The notes beneath the pieces are model-generated. The model saw nothing but the letters and a program-made list of their open reading frames with translations. It was not told the DNA's origin and did not search any database. The position numbers and the translations under genes were made by a program. This document shows positions 19,671-64,000 of a stretch of 64,000 nt of DNA, piece by piece. Each line of letters starts with the position of its first letter. Within the stretch, counting starts at the first letter, position 1. The stretch comes from a bacterium (GTDB lineage: Bacteria > UBA8248 > JACPRG01 > G963555815): contig CBDHDG010000004.1 of NCBI GenBank assembly GCA_965261595.1, positions 128,001 to 192,000 of the forward strand. Direction: 5' to 3'.

Positions 19671-19854
19671 AATCCTTCTCCAACGCGATGGATCGGTGGA
19701 TGAAACGCTGCCCGGCCGGGGGAGGAGGGGAGGGAGGGAGGCCGAAATTGTCGCCGACCTCCCCGCATTCCGTATCTTAAGGACCCTCTCCCCCGCTCTA
19801 GGGTTTTGTTGGACACTCGATTGATCCATGATTCATGGAGAAAGGGGTGTCGCG

Positions 19855-20241
19855 ATGAACGAACAAAAGCAAGAGGGGGCTTTGGCGGAGGGCGCCCGTA
19901 GGGCGAACGGAGCCAAGGCCCCAGGGCATCGCAGTGAGCGGGGTCGGTTCTCCTGCCAGCGCAAGCGGGAGGCGGTCCTGCGTCTTTTGCGGGGCGAGAG
20001 CCTGGAGACGCTCTGCCGCGAGTTGGGCACGACAGCGGCTCGGCTTTCCGCCTGGCGCGAGGCGTTCCTTCGCGGGGGCGAGGCGGCGCTCAAAGCCCGC
20101 CCGGCGGATGAGCGGGACGAGGAGAACGCCCGGCTCAAGGCCAAGGTGGGCGAACTCACGATGGAGGGCGAGGTCCTGCGGGAGAAGATCGACCGCCTGG
20201 AGGCCGGCCGCCCTTTAGCCGGCAGGAGGTGGAGGCGATGA
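19855..20241 (+). CDS. IS3-family OrfA (HTH), copy 1
   Basis: RKREAVLRLLRGE, RLKAKVGELTME coiled coil. Confidence 0.85.
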   Translation: MNEQKQEGALAEGARRANGAKAPGHRSERGRFSCQRKREAVLRLLRGESLETLCRELGTTAARLSAWREAFLRGGEAALKARPADERDEENARLKAKVGELTMEGEVLREKIDRLEAGRPLAGRRWRR

Positions 20242-21146
20242 GTCAGGCCCGCTTCACCTCCACGGGCAGAGCCTACGGCCTGAAGCGGGTGTGCGCCCTT
20301 TGGGGCTTGGCGCGCTCCACGGTCTACGCGCAACGGCGGCGAGAGGCGGTCCCCGTTCATGAACGCCCCACGCCCAATAAGCGCGGCCCTGTGGGCCCGT
20401 GCACCGATGCGGAACTCCTCGGCCACATCCGGCAGGTCCTGGAGGACTCTCCCTTCCATGGCGAGGGCTACCGCAAGGTGTGGGCGAGGCTGCGCTTCGC
20501 GGGCATCCGCACCAGCAAGGAGCGGATGCGTCGCCTGATGTGGGAGGCGGGGCTTCAGGCCCCCCACCGGGTGGGCAAACCCCGAGGTCCCAAGGCCCAC
20601 AACGGGACCATCCGCACCGAGCGGCCCGACCGAATGTGGGGCACGGACATGACGACGACGGTGACCACCGAGGAGGGGGTGGCCTCGGTGTTCGTGCCGG
20701 TGGATCACTGCTCGGTGGACTGCGTGGGGATCCATGCGGCCAAGAGCGGCAACCGCTTCGAGGCCCTGGAGCCGATCCGGCAGGGGGTCGCCGAGCGCTT
20801 CGCCGGCTTGGAGGCGGACGTCGCCGAGGGGCTTAAAGTTCGTCACGACCACGGCCCCGCCTATCTGTCCGATGACTTTCAGCGGGAGATCGCCTACCTG
20901 GGCATGACCAGTTCGCCCAGCTTCGTGCGGGCGCCCGAGGGAAATGGCTACTGTGAGTGGTTCATCCGCATCTTGAAGGAGAATCTCCTGTGGGTGCGCT
21001 CTTTCGCCACCGTAGAGGAACTGCGGTGGGCGCTGCTTGAGTTCAAGAACCTGTACAACCATCATTGGATTCTCGAGGGCTACGGCTACCGAACGCCGGC
21101 CCAGGCAAGGCAGGAAAAACTCGCTCAAGTTGCGGAGGCCGCATGA
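20238..21146 (+). CDS. IS3-family OrfB (DDE integrase core), copy 1
   Basis: GYRKVWARL, WGTDMT, HDHGPAY, EGNG.CE; ATG overlaps the orfA TGA. Confidence 0.9.
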   Translation: MSQARFTSTGRAYGLKRVCALWGLARSTVYAQRRREAVPVHERPTPNKRGPVGPCTDAELLGHIRQVLEDSPFHGEGYRKVWARLRFAGIRTSKERMRRLMWEAGLQAPHRVGKPRGPKAHNGTIRTERPDRMWGTDMTTTVTTEEGVASVFVPVDHCSVDCVGIHAAKSGNRFEALEPIRQGVAERFAGLEADVAEGLKVRHDHGPAYLSDDFQREIAYLGMTSSPSFVRAPEGNGYCEWFIRILKENLLWVRSFATVEELRWALLEFKNLYNHHWILEGYGYRTPAQARQEKLAQVAEAA

Positions 21147-21367
21147 GGTCGAATACCCTCACCCGAGTGTCCAATAACCCAGGGGCGGTCCACCTCCCCG
21201 CCGAATGGCAAGCCCAAAACAATCGGCGCGGGCGGACCCCTTTCCCATTTCAGTGGTATATAATCCGGCGTTGGCTGTCCGCGGATAGATTGGCGGCGTC
21301 TTCTGAGGGTTGCGGATGATGCCGGTCCGGGCGACCCCCGGCCGATGCGCCGCGTTTGGGAAATCCA

Positions 21368-42594: not shown

Positions 42595-43227
42595 TTGAAG
42601 CGGGCCGAAAAGAGCGCGCTGGACGAGTTCGTGACGGAGGTGTCCAAGGGCCTGGAGAAAGTCAGCGACGCTGACGAGGCCACCCGGGTGGTGCAGAAGG
42701 CCATCCCGAGACTCTTGGGGGATCGCGCGTGGCTTGCGGCCGAGCACCGGAACCCCTCCGCGCGGGAGTTCACCCGCAGCCTCATCTATCGACATCCCGA
42801 CCTGGGCTTCGCGGTCGTGGCGACCGTCTGGAAACCCGGCCAGGGGACCCCCGTTCACGACCACGGAGGCGTCTGGGGCGTCGAGGGGGTGCTCGAAGGC
42901 ACTGTCCGGGTGATCCAATATGACGTAGTGGGAACGGAGCATTCAGATGAGGAGATTCGCATCCGTCAGGGGCGCCGAATCGAGGCGCGGCCGGGGGACA
43001 TCGAGCGTCTGGTCCCGCCGTTCGGACATCACCGAATGGTGAACGTCAGCGATACACCCGCCACCACCATTCACGTATTCGGCGATTACCCGCTCAAACC
43101 GCGAATTTACGAGGACAAGGGCGACGGCACATTCGGACTCGAGATCCAAGGCGAACATTGGGAGGAGATCGAAGCCGCGCGCGAGAAGAGAAAGGCGAAG
43201 CCTTCGCCCGATCAACGGCCGAATTGA
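42595..43227 (+). CDS. Cysteine dioxygenase-family cupin
   Basis: WKPGQGTPVHDH, HRMVN, TIHVFG. Confidence 0.82.
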   Translation: MKRAEKSALDEFVTEVSKGLEKVSDADEATRVVQKAIPRLLGDRAWLAAEHRNPSAREFTRSLIYRHPDLGFAVVATVWKPGQGTPVHDHGGVWGVEGVLEGTVRVIQYDVVGTEHSDEEIRIRQGRRIEARPGDIERLVPPFGHHRMVNVSDTPATTIHVFGDYPLKPRIYEDKGDGTFGLEIQGEHWEEIEAAREKRKAKPSPDQRPN

Positions 43228-43331
43228 GCCAAAAGAATCTCGGGGGGTGTGTGTGGAAGGAGGCGTAATCCGAACGCGGAAGAAGGTCCGGATAATCCGC
43301 GAGGGCCGATCGATCAGGATGACCCGGAATC

Positions 43332-43535
43332 TCAGAGATTGCCCGTGAAGTAGAGGCCGGCGAATGCCACCACCACAATCAAACCCAGCATGAGCCACAG
43401 AAACTGGTCCATCTCGCCCGCGGAGAAGTATCGGCTATGATGGATATCCATCTGCTGTCGTTCGATTCCGGAAAGCTTCTTCTTGTGCTCTTTGAATCTC
43501 GGCCGCTCCGGAGAGGGGCGCCGCCTGGTCGCCAA
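43332..43535 (-). CDS. Small membrane protein (67 aa, C-terminal TM helix)
   Basis: Basic N-terminus, FLWLMLGLIVVVAFAGLYF; start uncertain. Confidence 0.5.
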   Translation of the reverse strand: MATRRRPSPERPRFKEHKKKLSGIERQQMDIHHSRYFSAGEMDQFLWLMLGLIVVVAFAGLYFTGNL

Positions 43536-43545
43536 GTATTTCGAC

Positions 43546-43622
43546 CGCGATTATATACTTGACCCCTCGACCCACTCATGTAGTAAAACGGACCCAAAAG
43601 GCCGAACCACAAGATGTAGGGG
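43546..43622 (+). repeat. Orphan, diverged copy of the cassette terminal repeat
   Basis: CGCGATTATATACTTGAC...CATGTAG...ACCACAAGATGTAGGGG matches the ends at 46445 and 47352. Confidence 0.65.
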
Positions 43623-43703
43623 TTGACATTCTCCCTATTTCTGCTCGAAACTGAAGCTCCTTAGATCACTAGACTTTGATAGCAGAGATTGCACACAGGT
43701 TCT

Positions 43704-46321
43704 TGGAGTTACCCCGGTTTCGTGGAGAGTTAAGCACTTGGGTTTTCAGGGTGTGCGTTGTTGTCTCCTTTCGTAGTTAACGGGTGACAGGTTGTCGATG
43801 GAGGAGTGCCGACGACGCGGGTTGTAGAAGCCCTCGATGAACCCGAACACCTCCGTGCGCGCCTCGGCCCGGGTGCGGAAACTGTGGCGAGCGAGGAGCT
43901 CGCACTCCAGCGTGGCGAAAAAGCTCTCACACAGCGCGTTGTCGTAGCAGTCCCCGACCGAACCCATGGAGGGACGCACGCCTGGACCGCCCCTGGGTTA
44001 TTGGACACTCGGGTGAGGGTATTCGACCTCATGCGGCCTCCGCAACTTGAGCGAGTTTTTCCTGCCTTGCCTGGGCCGGCGTTCGGTAGCCGTAGCCCTC
44101 GAGAATCCAATGATGGTTGTACAGGTTCTTGAACTCAAGCAGCGCCCACCGCAGTTCCTCTACGGTGGCGAAAGAGCGCACCCACAGGAGATTCTCCTTC
44201 AAGATGCGGATAAACCACTCACAGTAGCCATTTCCCTCGGGCGCCCGCACGAAGCTGGGCGAACTGGTCATGCCCAGGTAGGCGATCTCCCGCTGAAAGT
44301 CATCGGACAGATAGGCGGGGCCGTGGTCGTGACGAACTTTAAGCCCCTCGGCGACGTCCGCCTCCAAGCCGGCGAAGCGCTCGGCGACCCCCTGCCGGAT
44401 CGGCTCCAGGGCCTCGAAGCGGTTGCCGCTCTTGGCCGCATGGATCCCCACGCAGTCCACCGAGCAGTGATCCACCGCCACGAACACCGAGGCCACCCCC
44501 TCCTCGGTGGTCACCGTCGTCGTCATGTGCGTGCCCCACATTCGGTCGGGCCGCTCGGTGCGGATGGTCCCGTTGTGGGCCTTGGGACCTCGGGGTTTGC
44601 CCACCCGGTGGGGGGCCTGAAGCCCCGCCTCCCGCATCAGGCGACGCACCCGCTCCTTGCTGGTGCGGATGCCCGCGAAGCGTAGCCTCGCCCACACCTT
44701 GCGGTAGCCCTCGCCATGGAAGGGAGAGTCCTCCAGGACCTGCCGGATGTGGCCGAGGAGTTCCGCATCGGTGCACGGGCCCACAGGGCCGCGCTTATTG
44801 GGCGTGGGGCGTTCATGAACGGGGACCGCCTCTCGCCGCCGTTGCGCGTAGACCGTGGAGCGCGCCAAGCCCCAAAGGGCGCACACCCGCTTCAGGCCGT
44901 AGGCTCTGCCCGTGGAGGTGAAGCGGGCCTGACTCATCGCCTCCACCTCCTGCCGGCTAAAGGGCGGCCGGCCTCCAGGCGGTCGATCTTCTCCCGCAGG
45001 ACCTCGCCCTCCATCGTGAGTTCGCCCACCTTGGCCTTGAGCCGGGCGTTCTCCTCGGCCCGCTCATCCGCCGGGCGGGCTTTGAGCGCCGCCTCGCCCC
45101 CGCGAAGGAACGCCTCGCGCCAGGCGGAAAGCCGAGCCGCTGTCGTGCCCAACTCGCGGCAGAGCGTCTCCAGGCTCTCGCCCCGCAAAAGACGCAGGAC
45201 CGCCTCCCGCTTGCGCCTGGCAGGAGAACCGACCCCGCTCACTGCGATGCCATGGGGCCTTGGCTCCGTTCGCCCTGCGGGCGCCCTCCGCCAAAGCCCC
45301 CTCTTGCTTTTGTTCGTTCATCGCGACACCCCTTTCTCCATGAATCATGGATCAATCGAGTGTCCAACAAAACCCTAGAGCGGGGGACGCCCGCCTGCCG
45401 GCAGCGCTGCCCAAAGGCGACCGAGGTGTACTGCGTGCCCTGGTCGGAGTGGTGGATGACGGCCCGGGGACGGCGCTTATACAGCGCCATGTCGAGCGCG
45501 TCGAGCACCAACTCGGCCCGCAGGTGTGTGGCCATCGACCACCCCACGATGCGCCGGCTGAACGCATCGGGCGCCACGGCCAGATACAAAAACCCCGCCC
45601 ATGTCGGAACGTAGGTGATGTCGGCCACCCACAGCCGGTCGGGGGCCTCGGCCGTGAAGTTGCGGTCCACCAGATCAGGGGCCGGCCGCGCCTCCTGCCG
45701 GCGCTGCGTCGTGCGCACTCCCTTGCGCCGACTGACGCCCGCAAGTCCCGCCCCACGTATCAGCCTGGCGACGCGCTTGCGGCCCACACGCACTCCCTCA
45801 GCCTCCAGCTCGGCATGGACGCGCGGCACGCCGTAAGTCCCCCGAGAACGCTCGTGGATCGCCTGAATGCGTTTGGTGAGCGCCCGATCGGCACACGAGC
45901 GGGCACACGGCGCGCGCCTGCACCACGCGTAGTAGCCGCTGGAGGAGACGCCCAGCACCCGGCACATGGTGGCGGTCCGATACATGGCCTGGTTCGCCCT
46001 CACGAACCCGTAGATCCGGACGGGATCGAATCGGTATCCCGAGCAAACCAGGCCGCGGCTTTTGCCAGGATCTCCCACTCATCGCTCGTGAGCCCGTCTT
46101 TGCGACGCCCCTCGTCGACGTCGGCTTGATGGGCCCAGGTGCGGATCGTCTGCACCGAGGGCTCGAACTCGCGCGCCAGCGCCTCGGGCGTGCGTCCCGC
46201 CCAGACCAACTCTACCATCTGGCGGCGGAACTCCATTGGATAGCGTGGGTGAGTCTGTGGCATCGTGAACACCTCCTTTACCCCCAAATCATCAGGTGTC
46301 CACCAAACCGGGTCAACTCCA
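43704..46321 (-). mobile_element. Second IS3-family element, interrupted by copy 2 of the 1.4-kb IS
   Basis: IRs TGGAGTTACCCCGGTTTCGTGGA / (rc) TGGAGTTGACCCGGTTTGGTGGA; orfA 46000-46263, orfB split into 45388-~46030 (WVADITY, HHSDQGTQY) and 43746-43982 (YDNALCESFF); no TSD visible. Confidence 0.88.
43983..45387 (-). mobile_element. IS3-family element, copy 2 (1405 bp, defective)
   Basis: Same IRs; TSD CGCC (43979-82, 45388-91); +1 nt in orfA near 45217; orfB WGTDMT changed to WGTHMT. Confidence 0.92.
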
Positions 46322-46444
46322 ACCAGAGCCAAAACTCGCGGGTTGCGTAATACCATAGGTGACCAAGATAACAGGTGCTTACACGAGCATTTCAAGAGCA
46401 AAATTCAAACCAAAAGTTGATTATCACGAACCAGAAGAAAAAAA

Positions 46445-47352
46445 CGGAATTATGTACTTGACGCAGACGACCACAACATGTAGATCGTCCCCGCGTCTCG
46501 GCTGACCACAAGATGTAGGGGCATGCTTCAACTCAAGTCATGGTGGAGTTGGATTCGCAATTATGCGCTTGACTCAACCGAAGAGGGATCATACAATGAC
46601 TGAATCATGCTCAATTGGCTTCGCAAAGTCGCCCTCTTTTTGGCGGGTGAATTACTGCGGAGCTGGATATGGCCCATTGCGGTCACGGCGGCTGGCGTCA
46701 TGATCGGTTTTGCGCAACATATCCAGTTGTTCAACCTATATGTTGGAGCGGTCATTCTGTTTTCAGTTTCCTCTATGGGATTGTTGCGATTCAGCGAATG
46801 GCGGTATCGTAATAGAGTTGCGGATATGCTTAACTTTCATAGTGTGAGAACTGACAGAATAATCGACAAAGCTGGTGTAGTAAAATCACTGCGGATTGGT
46901 GCTACGTTTAACAACAAAGCTCTTTTCCCGGTGACATTTGAGGTTGTAAATGTCGTCTCAACATTTGATAAGTTGTACCCGACAAAAGAGCCATATGCCA
47001 AGAATAGCTATACCATCCCTGCAGGAGGGATGGGGTGGTTTGACGATCACTACATATCCTATAGAGCAGAAGAGAAGCGGCGTTTTTGAGGGCGGTCTTG
47101 AATTTGAGTTTAAGTACGGAAGAAAAGGAAAAACCAACAACACATTGCATATAAACAAAAAGTTGTTTTTACACTTCAATGAAAAGGGCGATATTCAGCG
47201 CGTGGATTTTATCGATCAATGAAACCGAACGATCTGATAGAGCGCATCTTCTGGAAACGGATCGATGGAAGCATGCCCCTACATCTTGTGGTCAGCCGAG
47301 ACGCGGGCGCGACCTACATGTTGTGGTCGTCTGTGTCAAGTATATAAATACG
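46445..47352. mobile_element. Non-autonomous cassette (908 bp) with long TIRs and a passenger gene, IS1595-like ends
   Basis: ~85-bp inverted repeats (46445-~46530, ~47267-47352), 8-bp TSD GAAAAAAA (46437-44, 47353-60), no transposase, low-GC interior. Confidence 0.85.
46607..47222 (+). pseudogene. Passenger hypothetical membrane protein, probably one gene frameshifted near 47055
   Basis: Two N-terminal hydrophobic helices; overlapping ORFs 46607-47089 and 46950-47222; AT-rich codon usage. Confidence 0.5.
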
Positions 47353-47362
47353 GAAAAAAATG

Positions 47363-47767
47363 ATGGCGGATAAGCCGAAAAGCACGTCCCTTTCCCAACC
47401 CGTTCATCACAAAGACGCGGAATTTCCCGCGATTGAATGCGTCCCCAATCAATATGCGGGGCGAGATTATACTGTTGACCTATCGATCCCCGAGTTTACC
47501 TGTATCTGCCCGGTCACCGGTCAGCCGGATTTCGCAGAGATCCGCGTGAAGTATGTCCCGGGAAAGACGCTGATCGAATTAAAATCCTTGAAGTTCTATA
47601 TCCAGGCCTACCGGAGCGTCGGCATTCACCACGAATCGGGCGTCAACAGGATCCTCGACGATTTGGTCAATGCTTGCGCGCCCCGAAAGATGGAGGTTGT
47701 TGGAGATTTCTCGGTCCGGGGGGGCATCAAGACCGTTGTGCGGACGGCCTACGAAAGCCGGGAATAG
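47363..47767 (+). CDS. queF: NADPH-dependent 7-cyano-7-deazaguanine (preQ0) reductase
   Basis: PEFTCICPVTGQPDFA, ELKSLKFY, HE, VRGGI. Confidence 0.95.
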   Translation: MADKPKSTSLSQPVHHKDAEFPAIECVPNQYAGRDYTVDLSIPEFTCICPVTGQPDFAEIRVKYVPGKTLIELKSLKFYIQAYRSVGIHHESGVNRILDDLVNACAPRKMEVVGDFSVRGGIKTVVRTAYESRE

Positions 47768-47775
47768 CTACGATC

Positions 47776-48444
47776 TCACGGGGTGGACCGCGCATGAAGA
47801 CCCGCGAGAATCGCCCGGGCGCTGAGAACATTGGTGAAACCCGACAGGCCCTTCAGAACCCCCGTGTGGACCTCGGCGTCCCAGGTGGTCATCATGTCGT
47901 GGGCCATCACCACCCGGAAATTCCGTTGGTAGGCGTCGAACGCCGTGGCTTGCACGCAGTAATTCGTATAGACCCCGGTCAGGATCAGCGTTTCGATGTT
48001 CAGCGCGCGCAGTTGCTCTTCCAGATCGGTTCCGAAAAAGCTGCTGAACCGGACCTTGACGATCTCCAGGTCGAAGCCGGAAAACCCCTCCCCTTCCACC
48101 GTCCGCGCGCCCCAGGACCCGGGTCGCAGACCGTCCTCTTTCAGAAAAGGCCGGCTCTCGATGTGCAGCCCCGCCTCGACGGGCGCGCCGTCCGGGCCGC
48201 AGGCGTATTCCGTCCGAACGTTGATGAGCCGCGCGCCGCTCTGTTTGGATGCGGCCAGGAATTCGGCCAACGGACCCATCAGGGCCGAGATGCCGGGACA
48301 TTCCAGCCCGTTGCGGGCATAAATCCCCTCCGGCGCGCAGAAGTCGTTCTGGACGTCGATGAGAAGAACCGCCGTGGATTCGGGCCGAAGCGTGAGGGGA
48401 ATCCGCGGGAAGTCGCCCACCGCCTGACGAAATGAATCGTTCAT
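47776..48444 (-). CDS. Isochorismatase-family cysteine hydrolase
   Basis: LLIDVQNDF, K.RFSSFFGT, GVYTNYCV. Confidence 0.9.
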   Translation of the reverse strand: MNDSFRQAVGDFPRIPLTLRPESTAVLLIDVQNDFCAPEGIYARNGLECPGISALMGPLAEFLAASKQSGARLINVRTEYACGPDGAPVEAGLHIESRPFLKEDGLRPGSWGARTVEGEGFSGFDLEIVKVRFSSFFGTDLEEQLRALNIETLILTGVYTNYCVQATAFDAYQRNFRVVMAHDMMTTWDAEVHTGVLKGLSGFTNVLSARAILAGLHARSTP

Positions 48445-49376
48445 GTCGCGCCTCCTTTCGCGGCCTCCGCCGGGTTGGGCCGGAGCGCCTGCTCCAGAAT
48501 GTCCATCCCCACCCGTTTGCTGAAGCCCTCGATCAGTTTCATGGTGACCTTCCCGGGGACGGCGCCCCGGAGGGATTGGCCGTTGATGAGTCCGGCGGGC
48601 AGGATGGCGAAACTCGTGGTGCACAAGAAGGCCTCGTCCGCGTTGACCGCTTCGAAGATCGTCATGTCCCCTTCCCGGACAGGAATTCCCGCTTCCCCGG
48701 CGATCTCGAGAATCTCCATCCTCGTAATCCCTTCGAGGACATTCAGCAAACTGGGCGTCAGCAATGTTTCTCCGGACACCACAAAGAAATTGGCGAAACT
48801 GCTCTCTGTGATGAAACCGCGCAAGTCCAGCATCAGGGGATAACAGCGCGATTCCACGAGACGGGCCTGAAGGTTCGCCTGGATGTGGTTGGATTTGTTC
48901 GTGATCTTGGCCCGCGAATCCAGGGCCTCCGGCGGGGTGCGCCGGATCGCGGGCGTCACCAAGTGCGCGCCGCGGTGGAAGTCGCTGGCATAGGCCGTGA
49001 AATCCAGCGGGACGCAGTAAATCGCGACCGTCGCCGGCCCGGATACGCCGTGGGTGGATCGAAGGCTCACGCCCCGGCTGATATTGTGCCAGATTTGATA
49101 ATCCTCTCCCGCGCCCAGAAGATGCCGGTTCCGATTAAGGACCTCGTGGGTCAGCTTCTCCAACTCGTCCAGTGACAGGCCGGGGTCAATCTGCATATAC
49201 CTCATGGAGCTTTCAAGCCGCCGCAGGTGGCGGTCCAGCCGGAAGGGCGCCCCTCCGTACGTCCGGGTCATCTCGTAGACGCCGTCTCCGGCCCTGAACC
49301 CGGCGTCGAAAATCGAGACCTTCGCCTCGGATTCCGGGACGTATTCACCGTTGAGAAAAACCGTTCTCTCGCTCAT
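48441..49376 (-). CDS. Class IV aminotransferase (branched-chain/D-amino acid type)
   Basis: FLNGEYV, D.GFRAGDGVYE, HLRRL, AKIT, LEGITR, ADEAFL. Confidence 0.9.
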   Translation of the reverse strand: MSERTVFLNGEYVPESEAKVSIFDAGFRAGDGVYEMTRTYGGAPFRLDRHLRRLESSMRYMQIDPGLSLDELEKLTHEVLNRNRHLLGAGEDYQIWHNISRGVSLRSTHGVSGPATVAIYCVPLDFTAYASDFHRGAHLVTPAIRRTPPEALDSRAKITNKSNHIQANLQARLVESRCYPLMLDLRGFITESSFANFFVVSGETLLTPSLLNVLEGITRMEILEIAGEAGIPVREGDMTIFEAVNADEAFLCTTSFAILPAGLINGQSLRGAVPGKVTMKLIEGFSKRVGMDILEQALRPNPAEAAKGGAT

Positions 49377-49918: not shown

Positions 49919-52570
49919 ATGCTGAAAATACTCAAAAAGGCCTCGTGGTTGGCGATGGGCATCGCTGTGACGCTTCTTGTCGCGGCGGGGTCAAGCAGTG
50001 CCCAGGTGAAAGGCAACACCATCATTTTCGGGGCGGCCGTTTCGTTCACCGGAAAATACTCGACGGCCGGCAGGCACACCAAGAACGGCTACGAGCTCGC
50101 CGTCAAGCGCATCAACGAGATGGGCGGCGTCAGCGTCGGGGGCAAAAAATATCAAATCAAGTCCCCCGCTCTAGGGTTTTGTTGGACACTCGATTGATCC
50201 ATGATTCATGGAGAAAGGGGTGTCGCGATGAACGAACAAAAGCAAGAGGGGGCTTTGGCGGAGGGCGCCCGTAGGGCGAACGGAGCCAAGGCCCCAGGGC
50301 ATCGCAGTGAGCGGGGTCGGTTCTCCTGCCAGCGCAAGCGGGAGGCGGTCCTGCGTCTTTTGCGGGGCGAGAGCCTGGAGACGCTCTGCCGCGAGTTGGG
50401 CACGACAGCGGCTCGGCTTTCCGCCTGGCGCGAGGCGTTCCTTCGCGGGGGCGAGGCGGCGCTCAAAGCTCGCCCGGCGGATGAGCGGGCCGAGGAGAAC
50501 GCCCGGCTCAAGGCCAAGGTGGGCGAACTCACGATGGAGGGCGAGGTCCTGCGGGAGAAGATCGACCGCCTGGAGGCCGGCCGCCCTTTAGCCGGCAGGA
50601 GGTGGAGGCGATGAGTCAGGCCCGCTTCACCTCCACGGGCAGAGCCTACGGCCTGAAGCGGGTGTGCGCCCTTTGGGGCTTGGCGCGCTCCACGGTCTAC
50701 GCGCAACGGCGGCGAGAGGCGGTCCCCGTTCATGAACGCCCCACGCCCAATAAGCGCGGCCCTGTGGGCCCGTGCACCGATGCGGAACTCCTCGGTCACA
50801 TCCGGCAGGTCCTGGAGGACTCTCCCTTCCATGGCGAGGGCTACCGCAAGGTGTGGGCGAGGCTGCGCTTCGCGGGCATCCGCACCAGCAAGGAGCGGGT
50901 GCGTCGCCTGATGCGGGAGGCGGGGCTTCAGGCCCCCCACCGGGTGGGCAAACCCCGAGGTCCCAAGGCCCACAACGGGACCATCCGCACCGAGCGGCCC
51001 GACCGAATGTGGGGCACGGACATGACGACGACGGTGACCACCGAGGAGGGGATGGCCTCGGTGTTCGTGGCGGTGGATCACTGTTCGGTGGACTGCGTGG
51101 GGATCCATGCGGCCAAGAGCGGCAACCGCTTCGAGGCCCTGGAGCCGATCCGGCAGGGGGTCGCCGAGCGCTTCGCCGGCTTGGAGGCGGACGTCGCCGA
51201 GGGGCTTAAAGTTCGTCACGACCACGGCCCCGCCTATCTGTCCGATGACTTTCAGCGGGAGATCGCCTACCTGGGCATGACCAGTTCGCCCAGCTTCGTG
51301 CGGGCGCCCGAGGGAAATGGCTACTGTGAGTGGTTCATCCGCATCTTGAAGGAGAATCTCCTGTGGGTGCGCTCTTTCGCCACCGTAGAGGAACTGCGGT
51401 GGGCGCTGCTTGAGTTCAAGAACCTGTACAACCATCATTGGATTCTCGAGGGCTACGGCTACCGAACGCCGGCCCAGGCAAGGCAGGAAAAACTCGCTCA
51501 AGTTGCGGAGGCCGCATGAGGTCGAATACCCTCACCCGAGTGTCCAATAACCCAGGGGCGGTCCACAAGGTCAAATATTATGACGATGAATCCACCCCCG
51601 CGCGGGGCGCCCAGCTTGCGGAGCGCCTGATCAAACAAGACGGCGTCAAGTTCATGCTGGGCCCGTACAGCTCGGGTTTGACCAAGGCCATCACGCCGGT
51701 GACCGAGAAATACAAAATCCCGATGGTGGAGGGGAACGGGGCGTCTCGCAGCTTGTTCAACAAGGGCTACAAGTACATCTTCGCCGTGCTCTCGACCTCG
51801 GACTACTACCTGCGGGCGGCGATCAACCTGGCGGCCGAGATGGCGCAGAAGGCCGGCAAGAACCCCAAGACCCTGAAGGTGGCCATCGCCGTTGAGAACG
51901 ATCCGTTCTCCCTGGACGTCCGCGCCAGCGTGCTCGAGGACGCCAAGCGCTGGGGCATGAAGATCGTCATCGACGACAAGCTGCCGCCCGATCTCAACGA
52001 CATGTCGGCGACGCTGACCAAGGCGAGGGTCCTGAAACCGGACGTTTTGGTGGTCTCGGGGCATTCCAAAGGCGCGACCCTGGTCGTCCGCCAGATGTCT
52101 TCCATGAAGGTGGATGTGCCGCTGCTCGCCATCACCCACTGCGAGTCGGCGTCGGTGATCAAGAAATTCGGCGCGGCGGCGGATTACACCCTCTGCGCGG
52201 CCCAGTGGGCGCCTCCCTTGACGTACAAGGACCACTGGTTCGGCTCCGCCACCGACTATGCCAACCGGTTCAAGAAGGAGTACGGCTACGTGCCGCCGTA
52301 TCAGGCCGCGGAGTCGACGGCCTCCGTTCTGGTCTACGTCGACGCCCTGGCGCGGGCGGGTTCCTTCGACACGGAGAAGGTCCGCGACGCCATCGCCGCC
52401 ACAATATTCAGACCTTTTACGGCAACGTAAAATTCGACAAGACGGGTAAGAACATCGCCAAGCCCATGGTCCTCCGCCAAATCCAGAAAGGGAAGTACAA
52501 GGTGGTGGCCCCGACGAAGTGGGCGACATCGAAGCTGATCCACCCGCGGCCCAAGTGGAGCCGGCGCTAA
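49919..52570 (+). pseudogene. Branched-chain amino acid-type ABC substrate-binding protein, interrupted by IS copy 3 and frameshifted near 52402
   Basis: Signal peptide + ..GGKKYQIK before the IS resumes as VKYYDDES after the CAAG TSD; C-terminus NIQTFYGNVKFD in another frame. Confidence 0.88.
50162..51565 (+). mobile_element. IS3-family element, copy 3 (1404 bp, both ORFs intact)
   Basis: Same IRs; TSD CAAG (50158-61, 51566-69); orfA ~50228-50614, orfB 50611-51519. Confidence 0.94.
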
Positions 52571-62816: not shown

Positions 62817-62991
62817 TTCACTCTTCTCCTTTGAACCGATGTCCCGAAAGGCCGCGGAAAGACACAACCTGCCCTTCCTGTCTGAATTTAAAACGGAATT
62901 TCCTATATTAAGACCTTGGCAAACTCTCCCGCTTGGATTATATTTGATCTCGTGAATGAAGATTGGATAACCCAAGCAAGGAGAGAATGTC

Positions 62992-63870
62992 ATGGACATC
63001 ATACAGGTTTTCGAGCAGTTTCCAACCCAAAAATCATGCATCGAACATCTTGAGGCGGCGCGGTGGAGGGGTACGCCGTGCTGTATGTACTGCGGATCCA
63101 TCAAGGTGGCCCGACACATTAAACGGTGGCGGTGCTATGACTGCCGGACCTCCTTCAGCGTTATGGTTGGCACGATCTTTCATCACACGCACCTTCCCCT
63201 TCAGAAATGGTTCCTGGCGATCTCCCTCATCCTGAACGCCAAGAAGGGGCTGTCCGCCCTTCAGCTTTCGCGCGATCTCAAGGTGAACAAGAACACGGCT
63301 TGGCGCATTGCCATGCAGATCCGAAAGTCCATGACGCAGGCCGGGCAACGAGAAATGCTCACCGGGATCGTGGAGATGGACGAAACCTATGTGGGCGGAA
63401 AACCACGGAAGGGAACCGGCAAGAAGGGTGACACATCGAAGCGCGGGCGCGGAACGGACAAGGCCCCCGTGGTCGGCGCTGTGGAGCGAGGCGGCCGGGT
63501 GACGGCCAAGGCCGTGAAGAAGGGGAGCATGAAGGCTAAGCACCTGAGAGCCTTTGTCCGGGAGCGAATCAAGACACATGAATCCGAGTTGATCACGGAT
63601 GAATACAAGGGCTATCTCGGAATGTCGAAAGTTCTCCCCCACAGGGTCATCCGTCACGACAAATGGTATGTGGACGGTGACATCCACACGAATACGATTG
63701 ACGGCTTCTGGGCCTTGCTGAAACGCGGGATGTTCGGCCAGTTCCACAGTGTGAGCCGGAAGCACCTGCAACGTTACGTGGACGAGTTCTGCTTCCGATT
63801 CAACCTGCGCGAGTCCGATCCCATTATGGCGTTCGAGTTTACCATCAACAGGGGTATGGGGGTGGCATGA
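62992..63870 (+). mobile_element. IS1595-family transposase; element probably extends past the window end
   Basis: Zn ribbon (CMYC, CYDC), GTIF..T.LPL.KW, EMDETYVGG, ITDEY, HTNTIDGFW, YVDEF.FRFN. Confidence 0.93.
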
Positions 63871-64000
63871 TGAGGGATAAACCACTGGAAGTCATTGCAG
63901 GCGCGCCGGATAGACCGTTGAGCATCGGGGATATCGAGATTCAATGCTACGTCCTGGAAGACGAGACAAGAGTTTTGTCACAATCCGGGATGTTCGCTGG
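63870..64000 (+). CDS. 5' part of a probable P63C-domain passenger gene (truncated by window)
   Basis: MRDKPLEVIAGAPDRPLSIGDIEIQCYVLEDETRVLSQ; the IG..EI.CYVLED..RVLSQ pattern is typical of P63C-protein N-termini; start overlaps the transposase stop. Confidence 0.6.
   Translation, partial: MRDKPLEVIAGAPDRPLSIGDIEIQCYVLEDETRVLSQSGMFA

Follow-up and report, generated by a model that had tools for sequence, protein, structure and literature searches.

A probable mobile insertion cassette of IS1595 type with box-bearing ends in front of queF

In a stretch of bacterial DNA of 64,000 nucleotides, referred to below as the window, the segment 46445-47352 is probably a mobile insertion cassette that derives from an IS1595-family element and is non-autonomous. 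As judged from their sequence, its termini clearly belong with that family, and the A-rich 8-bp duplication around it is consistent with this. We propose that the cassette would have kept both ends on which a transposase acts and that its insertion would have duplicated an 8-bp A-rich target one base before the queF start codon. Since the cassette has no transposase gene, the enzyme would have been supplied from elsewhere in the cell, an IS1595-family transposase acting in trans. The cargo would be a single gene with a strong promoter of its own, inactivated in this copy by a frameshift. What sets this otherwise fairly ordinary element apart is its long ends with their boxes. Its parts and surroundings are the following:

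46445..47352: non-autonomous mobile cassette (probable), 908 bp, transposase-less, directly in front of queF
46437..46444, no strand: left copy of the target-site duplication, GAAAAAAA, identical to 47353-47360
46445..46529, plus strand: left terminal inverted repeat, with terminus CGGAATTATGTACTTGAC, box 1, a 19-bp linker and box 2
46471..46486, plus strand: box 1, CCACAACATGTAGATC, between the TTGACG of the end and TAGATC 17 nt downstream
46506..46521, plus strand: box 2, CCACAAGATGTAGGGG, 35 nt after box 1
46556..46575, plus strand: internal IS1595-end-like sequence CGCAATTATGCGCTTGACTC, which holds the -35 of the passenger promoter and resembles CGCAATCATCCCTTGAC of the Ca. Megaera element
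46569..46597, plus strand: promoter-like site TTGACT-17-TACAAT, 10/12, 10 nt before the passenger ATG
46607..47222, plus strand: passenger gene, encoding two membrane helices and a beta-sandwich, frameshifted by one extra base near 47058-47062
47268..47352, minus strand: right terminal inverted repeat, carrying both boxes of the left arm
47353..47360, no strand: right copy of the target-site duplication, GAAAAAAA, ending in the A of the queF ATG
47360..47767, plus strand: queF (preQ1 synthase), PF14489 at 1.7e-29, TIGR03139 at 149 bits (cut-off 86.9)

The arms, delimited with a repeat finder and by alignment, are 85 nt each, 92% complementary and 738 nt apart, and they form the sole long local inverted pair within 45500-48500. 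The preliminary description had read here terminal inverted repeats of ~85 bp with few mismatches, an 8-bp target duplication at both ends and an AT-rich interior, and all three hold. The interior has a GC content of ~0.40-0.45 (~42-45% against ~60-70% nearby), compared with 0.64-0.72 in the insertion sequence DNA to the left of the cassette and 0.58-0.70 to the right of ~47700. The duplication GAAAAAAA is a low-complexity run of A, so that the 8/8 match between its copies is weaker evidence than it appears. Identity between the arms is uneven: it amounts to 15/19 in the terminal segment, 16/16 in each 16-nt box, 16/19 in the spacer and 11/11 in the inner segment. The terminal 19 nt, where a transposase would be expected to act, are thus the least alike part of the arms, which counts against the cassette reading.

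Of the open reading frames listed in this region with a minimum length of 40 aa, only the passenger and short overlapping frames lie between the arms. A DDE_Tnp_IS1595 transposase with an N-terminal zinc ribbon was found neither among those frames nor in the Pfam scan of the passenger pieces, and this absence is expected of a non-autonomous derivative. That same scan, which covered those pieces of the interior alone, matched no Pfam family.

IS1595-family relatives and mobile insertion cassettes

An IS1595-family element lies at the far end of the window, and its transposase was used to search plasmids for relatives. The search returned 184 matching records, all below 60% identity, of which six were fetched; their ends were sought with a script that looks for inverted ends with flanking 8-mers. 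Clean inverted ends with 8/8 AT-rich duplications were found in four of the six, while the script gave no clean ends for L014 and L017.

62894..64000, plus strand: left part of the IS1595-family element of the window, with the putative end CGGAATTTCCTATATT, the transposase gene and a downstream open reading frame
62992..63870 (transposase encoded at 62992-63867), plus strand: IS1595-family transposase gene, PF12762 at 5e-37 plus a zinc ribbon, NF033547 at 216 bits
ISPepr2: 1081 bp, terminus CGGAACTATCACC, duplication AAAATAAT
Ca. Megaera element: 1665 bp, terminus CGCAATCATCCCTTGACATTCAATA (motif CGCAATCATCCCTTGAC), duplication TACTTTTT
Treponema element: 1969 bp, terminus CGGAATTATCCC..., duplication TTCCAAAA
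Roseomonas element: 2604 bp, terminus GGGGATTATGTATTTGACAAACAC (motif GGGGATTATGTATTTGAC), duplication TATCTTTA

The two cassette ends (CGGAATTATGTACTTGAC and CGTATTTATATACTTGAC) and a third, solo end in the window (CGCGATTATATACTTGAC, described below) share CGGAATTAT and ATTATGTAyTTGAC with the four plasmid elements, a similarity that spans ~18 nt only. A target duplication of 8 bp is usual for IS1595 according to PMC8101967. The relatives' termini, together with their 8/8 AT-rich duplications, bear out the earlier proposal of a non-autonomous element of IS1595 type. So does the window itself, with its IS1595 transposase gene and, ~100 nt upstream of that gene and following ATTTAAAA, the putative left end CGGAATTTCCTATATT; only the first 7 nt of this end (CGGAATT) are common to the cassette end, however, and it is without boxes, which counts against the cassette reading. 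One subgroup of IS1595 has the end consensus CGGnnTT, which had also been ascribed to the cassette. The left end (CGGAATT) fits it exactly and the right end (CGTATTT) only in part.

Extra genes lie inside the ends of three of these four relatives, those of Megaera, Treponema and Roseomonas, which indicates that this IS1595 clade transports passengers; ISNha5 is a named example of a passenger-carrying element of the family (PMC11891212). The Roseomonas element (L019 3885-6488) has three passenger open reading frames, one of them encoding a PIN-domain protein, and the left end of the Treponema succinifaciens element (L018 3334-3395) is tandemly duplicated, with two CGGAATTATCCC... copies 36 nt apart. 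In the IS1595 element of the window, the open reading frame from 63867 overlaps the transposase stop through ATGA and extends past the window end at 64000. This frame probably encodes a passenger of the element; over its first 44 aa no Pfam family is matched.

The cassette thus resembles these IS1595 'transporter' elements in its 8-bp AT-rich duplication, in its CGGAATTAT-type terminus and in an inward promoter with the -35 TTGAC inside the end, and it shares with three of the four relatives whose ends were found the presence of passengers inside the ends. It differs from them in having no transposase gene and in its inverted repeats, which at 85 nt are three to four times longer than those of the four relatives (~14-26 nt). 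The difference in repeat length weighs against the cassette reading, as do two negative results. An element that combines both 85-nt ends with a transposase was not found in the window, among the plasmid relatives or in the representative genomes. Searches of plasmids with the whole cassette (blastn) gave no match, and neither did tblastn searches with the passenger protein P0002 against plasmids and phages or with P0059 against plasmids.

Mobile insertion cassettes (MICs) are defined in PMC4337579 as a passenger between inverted repeats related to those of an insertion sequence, with no transposase, mobilised in trans by the cognate transposase. Under this definition, as worded there, the segment is a MIC with IS1595 as the parent family: one passenger lies between IS-related inverted repeats, no transposase gene is present, and mobilisation in trans is what we infer. 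As in MICs, the target duplication is typical of the parent family. An example of the class is MIC231 of Bacillus cereus, which is moved by the IS231 transposase. Compared with known MICs, the parent family here would be IS1595 instead of IS231 (IS4 family) or Tn3, and the arms are 85 nt long with paired internal boxes. Titles and abstracts retrieved on ISNha5, IS1595 passenger genes and ISPna2/ISNwi1 mention no IS1595-derived cassette, although we do not claim its absence from print; the cassette would add a clear IS1595-derived example to a small class of transposase-less single-gene cassettes.

A third end and copies in other contexts

A fifth match to the box pattern described in the next section led to a third copy of the end, 2.8 kb from the cassette, and the DNA between the two is occupied by nested IS3-family elements:

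43546..43631, plus strand: solo diverged end CGCGATTATATACTTGAC...AACCACAAGATGTAGGGG, with a 20-bp linker, nhmmer E 9.6e-23
19789-21192, 43983-45388 and 50161-51565: IS3-family element of ~1405 bp in three copies, 99% identical
~43703-46322: second IS3-type element, with inverted repeats at 43703-43726 and 46299-46322

The layout of the third end is that of the arms, except that its outer box is weaker and its boxes are spaced by 36 nt; the inner box is identical. This end has no partner in the window, where an nhmmer profile built from the three ends matches those three sites alone at good E-values. A larger element made of the third end and the right arm was considered and ruled out, the flanks ATTTCGAC and GAAAAAAA being different. 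The middle copy of the ~1405-bp element is inserted in the transposase gene of the second IS3-type element, for which no matching target duplication was seen at ~43703-46322.

In order to look beyond the window, a protein collection was searched with translations of the arm. The protein P0158 (102 aa) contains an arm-encoded stretch 88-96% identical to that of the window and continues into a flank, VIFLNTRQSW..., unlike the window's; in P0159 (65 aa) an arm-encoded stretch of 76% identity is joined to yet another flank. The end is therefore present in at least two further contexts, seen as translated peptides, in support of the earlier reading of a mobile element; a second complete copy of the cassette was not seen. 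The preliminary description had also suggested, as a possibility, a family with variable cargo, but no different cargo was found. P0159 is the one relative that is legible on its inner side, and its terminus peptide aligns with the internal site of the cassette (E 0.018, one weak alignment), which hints that this protein derives from a diverged version of the cassette itself.

These copies bear on a reading in which nothing has moved: a resident gene would be surrounded by an inverted duplication of local origin or by a regulatory palindrome, and the A-runs at both sides would be due to chance. Such a reading would account for the low complexity of the duplication, for the lack of a second full cassette copy in the window and for the lack of a match in the plasmid collection or the representative genomes. 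It does not sit with IS1595-type ends combined with a foreign base composition, with the third end 2.8 kb away, with the same end on two other flanks in other contigs (P0158, P0159) or with a passenger found on other contigs at 57-96% identity, and we regard it as very improbable.

Paired boxes in the arms and NrdR operators

Each arm contains two direct copies of GACCACAA[C/G]ATGTAG, 35 nt apart. Allowing up to two mismatches, this pattern has five matches in the window against 0.05 expected. Between the boxes, both arms of the cassette have a 19-bp linker and the third end a 20-bp one. The boxes are, to judge by two patterns of change, under constraint: they are identical between the arms (16/16) where the spacer is not (16/19), and P0159 keeps the codons over both boxes and the terminus while four of its six spacer codons differ. 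We consider it most likely that the 16-bp boxes are binding sites for the cognate transposase or for a regulator.

The arms could also double as promoters controlled by the host repressor NrdR. The layout of each arm resembles that of a ribonucleotide reductase promoter: box 1 occupies the spacer between a -35 TTGAC and a -10-like TAGATC, and box 2 follows further downstream. NrdR, a sensor of dATP and ATP, would then gate inward transcription or access to the ends. The conserved positions of the NrdR box are C4, A6, A8, T9, T11 and G13 (PMC13584703); boxes 1 and 2 of the arms agree at 6/6 of these, and their C4-to-G13 stretch is 75% AT, in line with the criteria set out in that source. NrdR operators likewise have two such 16-bp boxes over a promoter-like layout. 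A scan of genomes for the two-box pattern returned 13 loci, six of which (L001, L006, L008, L010, L011 and L013) lie beside ribonucleotide reductase (RNR) or nrdR genes and are thus tandem NrdR operators. The operator boxes are nearly identical to the arm boxes beyond the searched pattern (TGACCACAACATGTAGGGGTTG against TGACCACAAGATGTAGGGGCAT, and CGACCACAAGATGTAGATTGTC against CGACCACAACATGTAGATCGTC).

The spacing argues against NrdR. Table 5 of PMC12051234 gives a linker of 15-16 bp for NrdR, with 14-18 or 24-27 bp tolerated and 19-20 bp as the worst phase; a 19-bp spacer binds ~13- to 280-fold more weakly than the best, and a 20-bp spacer more weakly still. The 19- and 20-bp linkers of the cassette ends depart from this 15-16 bp length, and all 13 genome loci have linkers of 16-17 bp. 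Moreover, the outer box of the third end agrees at 4/6 of the conserved positions, no nrdR or RNR gene is present in the window, and the boxes lie in transposon ends and not before an RNR gene. Given that a linker of 19-20 bp is the worst binding phase, we treat NrdR control as a minority reading and an unlikely one; binding of the boxes by the cognate transposase or a regulator is the more likely explanation. Against the cassette reading itself, the scan of representative genomes from 185,579 species gave no match to the exact box pair at the arm spacing, and the 13 loci have another spacing in every case and no extended similarity to the end.

A bolder version, to which we give slightly less weight still, is that the transposon ends would carry a working NrdR-type box pair, recognised either by the host NrdR or by a transposase whose zinc ribbon would have come, by convergence, to bind the same boxes. 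If this were true, expression of the element or recognition of its ends would be tied to the dNTP and replication state of the cell. Between the zinc ribbon of NrdR and the ribbon model of IS1595 the match is no better than E 0.37, and none of the transposases matches the NrdR model, so that these comparisons give no support for a shared DNA-binding ancestry of NrdR and IS1595 transposases.

One of the 13 loci, on a Chloroflexia contig (L009 9850-10039), has a box pair of the same sequence placed after a tRNA-like 3' end and before two phage-integrase genes, a context that is not that of RNR.

The passenger gene, its promoter and queF

The passenger reading frame runs from 46607 to 47089 and continues in another frame to 47222. 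At the frameshift, where relatives have HYIPIEQKRSG, the window has HYISYRAEEKRRF and then a stop. An intact protein, P0002 (204 aa), is otherwise identical to the passenger of the window, and P0003 and P0005 are 80% and 60% identical. Breaks at other positions are present in P0007 and P0010, and P0009 is a truncated protein whose tail is garbled. The preliminary description had called the gene an orphan, which proved too strong: phmmer at E<=1e-3 finds 289 cluster representatives, most of them 200-220 aa in length, and 141 at E<=1e-10, although they belong to no named family. Its other statement, that the product is a protein with two transmembrane helices and no assignable family, agrees with our predictions (helices H2-36 and H41-69) and with fold searches that return generic matches.

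An AlphaFold model built on a 60-sequence alignment (pLDDT 95) begins with two long helices and continues into a sandwich of eight strands. The distribution of positive charges next to the helices suggests that the beta-sandwich domain would be cytoplasmic. No significant Pfam family was found for 60 members, the commonest weak match being PhoR (5 members, best E 0.026), and PADLOC, NCBIfam and PHROGs gave no family. In fold comparisons the PDB returned generic sandwiches only (ApaG, TRAP-beta and TMEM106B, TM 0.3-0.38), BFVD uncharacterised proteins and the Atlas clusters of 'hypothetical protein' only. This unnamed and widespread two-helix, beta-sandwich family would be mobile cargo that is repeatedly found broken.

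Upstream of the passenger, the internal site at 46556 reads CGCAATTATGCGCTTGACT, 17 nt, TACAAT and then the ATG at 46607. The left end of the Megaera element has the same layout, with CGCAATCATCCCTTGACA, 17 nt and TATACT, and P0007, read through upstream of its start, preserves the internal end-like stretch. By its sequence this stretch is the passenger promoter; it may be a relic end.

The second option leads to a nested arrangement, in which an older cassette, running from the end at 46556 to a decayed partner at ~47230-47254, would lie inside a short MITE-type element that supplied the 85-nt arms. The internal CGCAATTATGCGCTTGAC does have the look of a genuine IS1595 end that bears a promoter, a layout shared by the left end of the Megaera element (TTGACA-17-TATACT). 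The alignment of the P0159 terminus peptide with the internal site and the tandemly duplicated left end of the Treponema element also speak for nesting, as does a 14/25 match between the reverse complement of 47230-47254 and the internal end. That match, however, is marginal after allowing for the choice of offset, and the 8-mers flanking the putative inner cassette agree at no more than 5/8. Alignment shows no relation between the stretches that lie directly inwards of the two arms, and the internal site can be explained simply as the passenger promoter. We regard nesting as improbable.

Passenger and queF are encoded on one strand, with no terminator-like site found on it in the interval, so that the cassette promoter may now read through into queF. 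In that position the cassette could bring a tRNA-modification gene under a promoter of its own. A scan with Rfam over 43000-48000 gave nothing relevant, including no preQ1 riboswitch. Within queF, at 47466-47479, ATTATACTGTTGAC repeats the terminal motif of the cassette with one mismatch (nhmmer E 9), which is probably chance within coding sequence.
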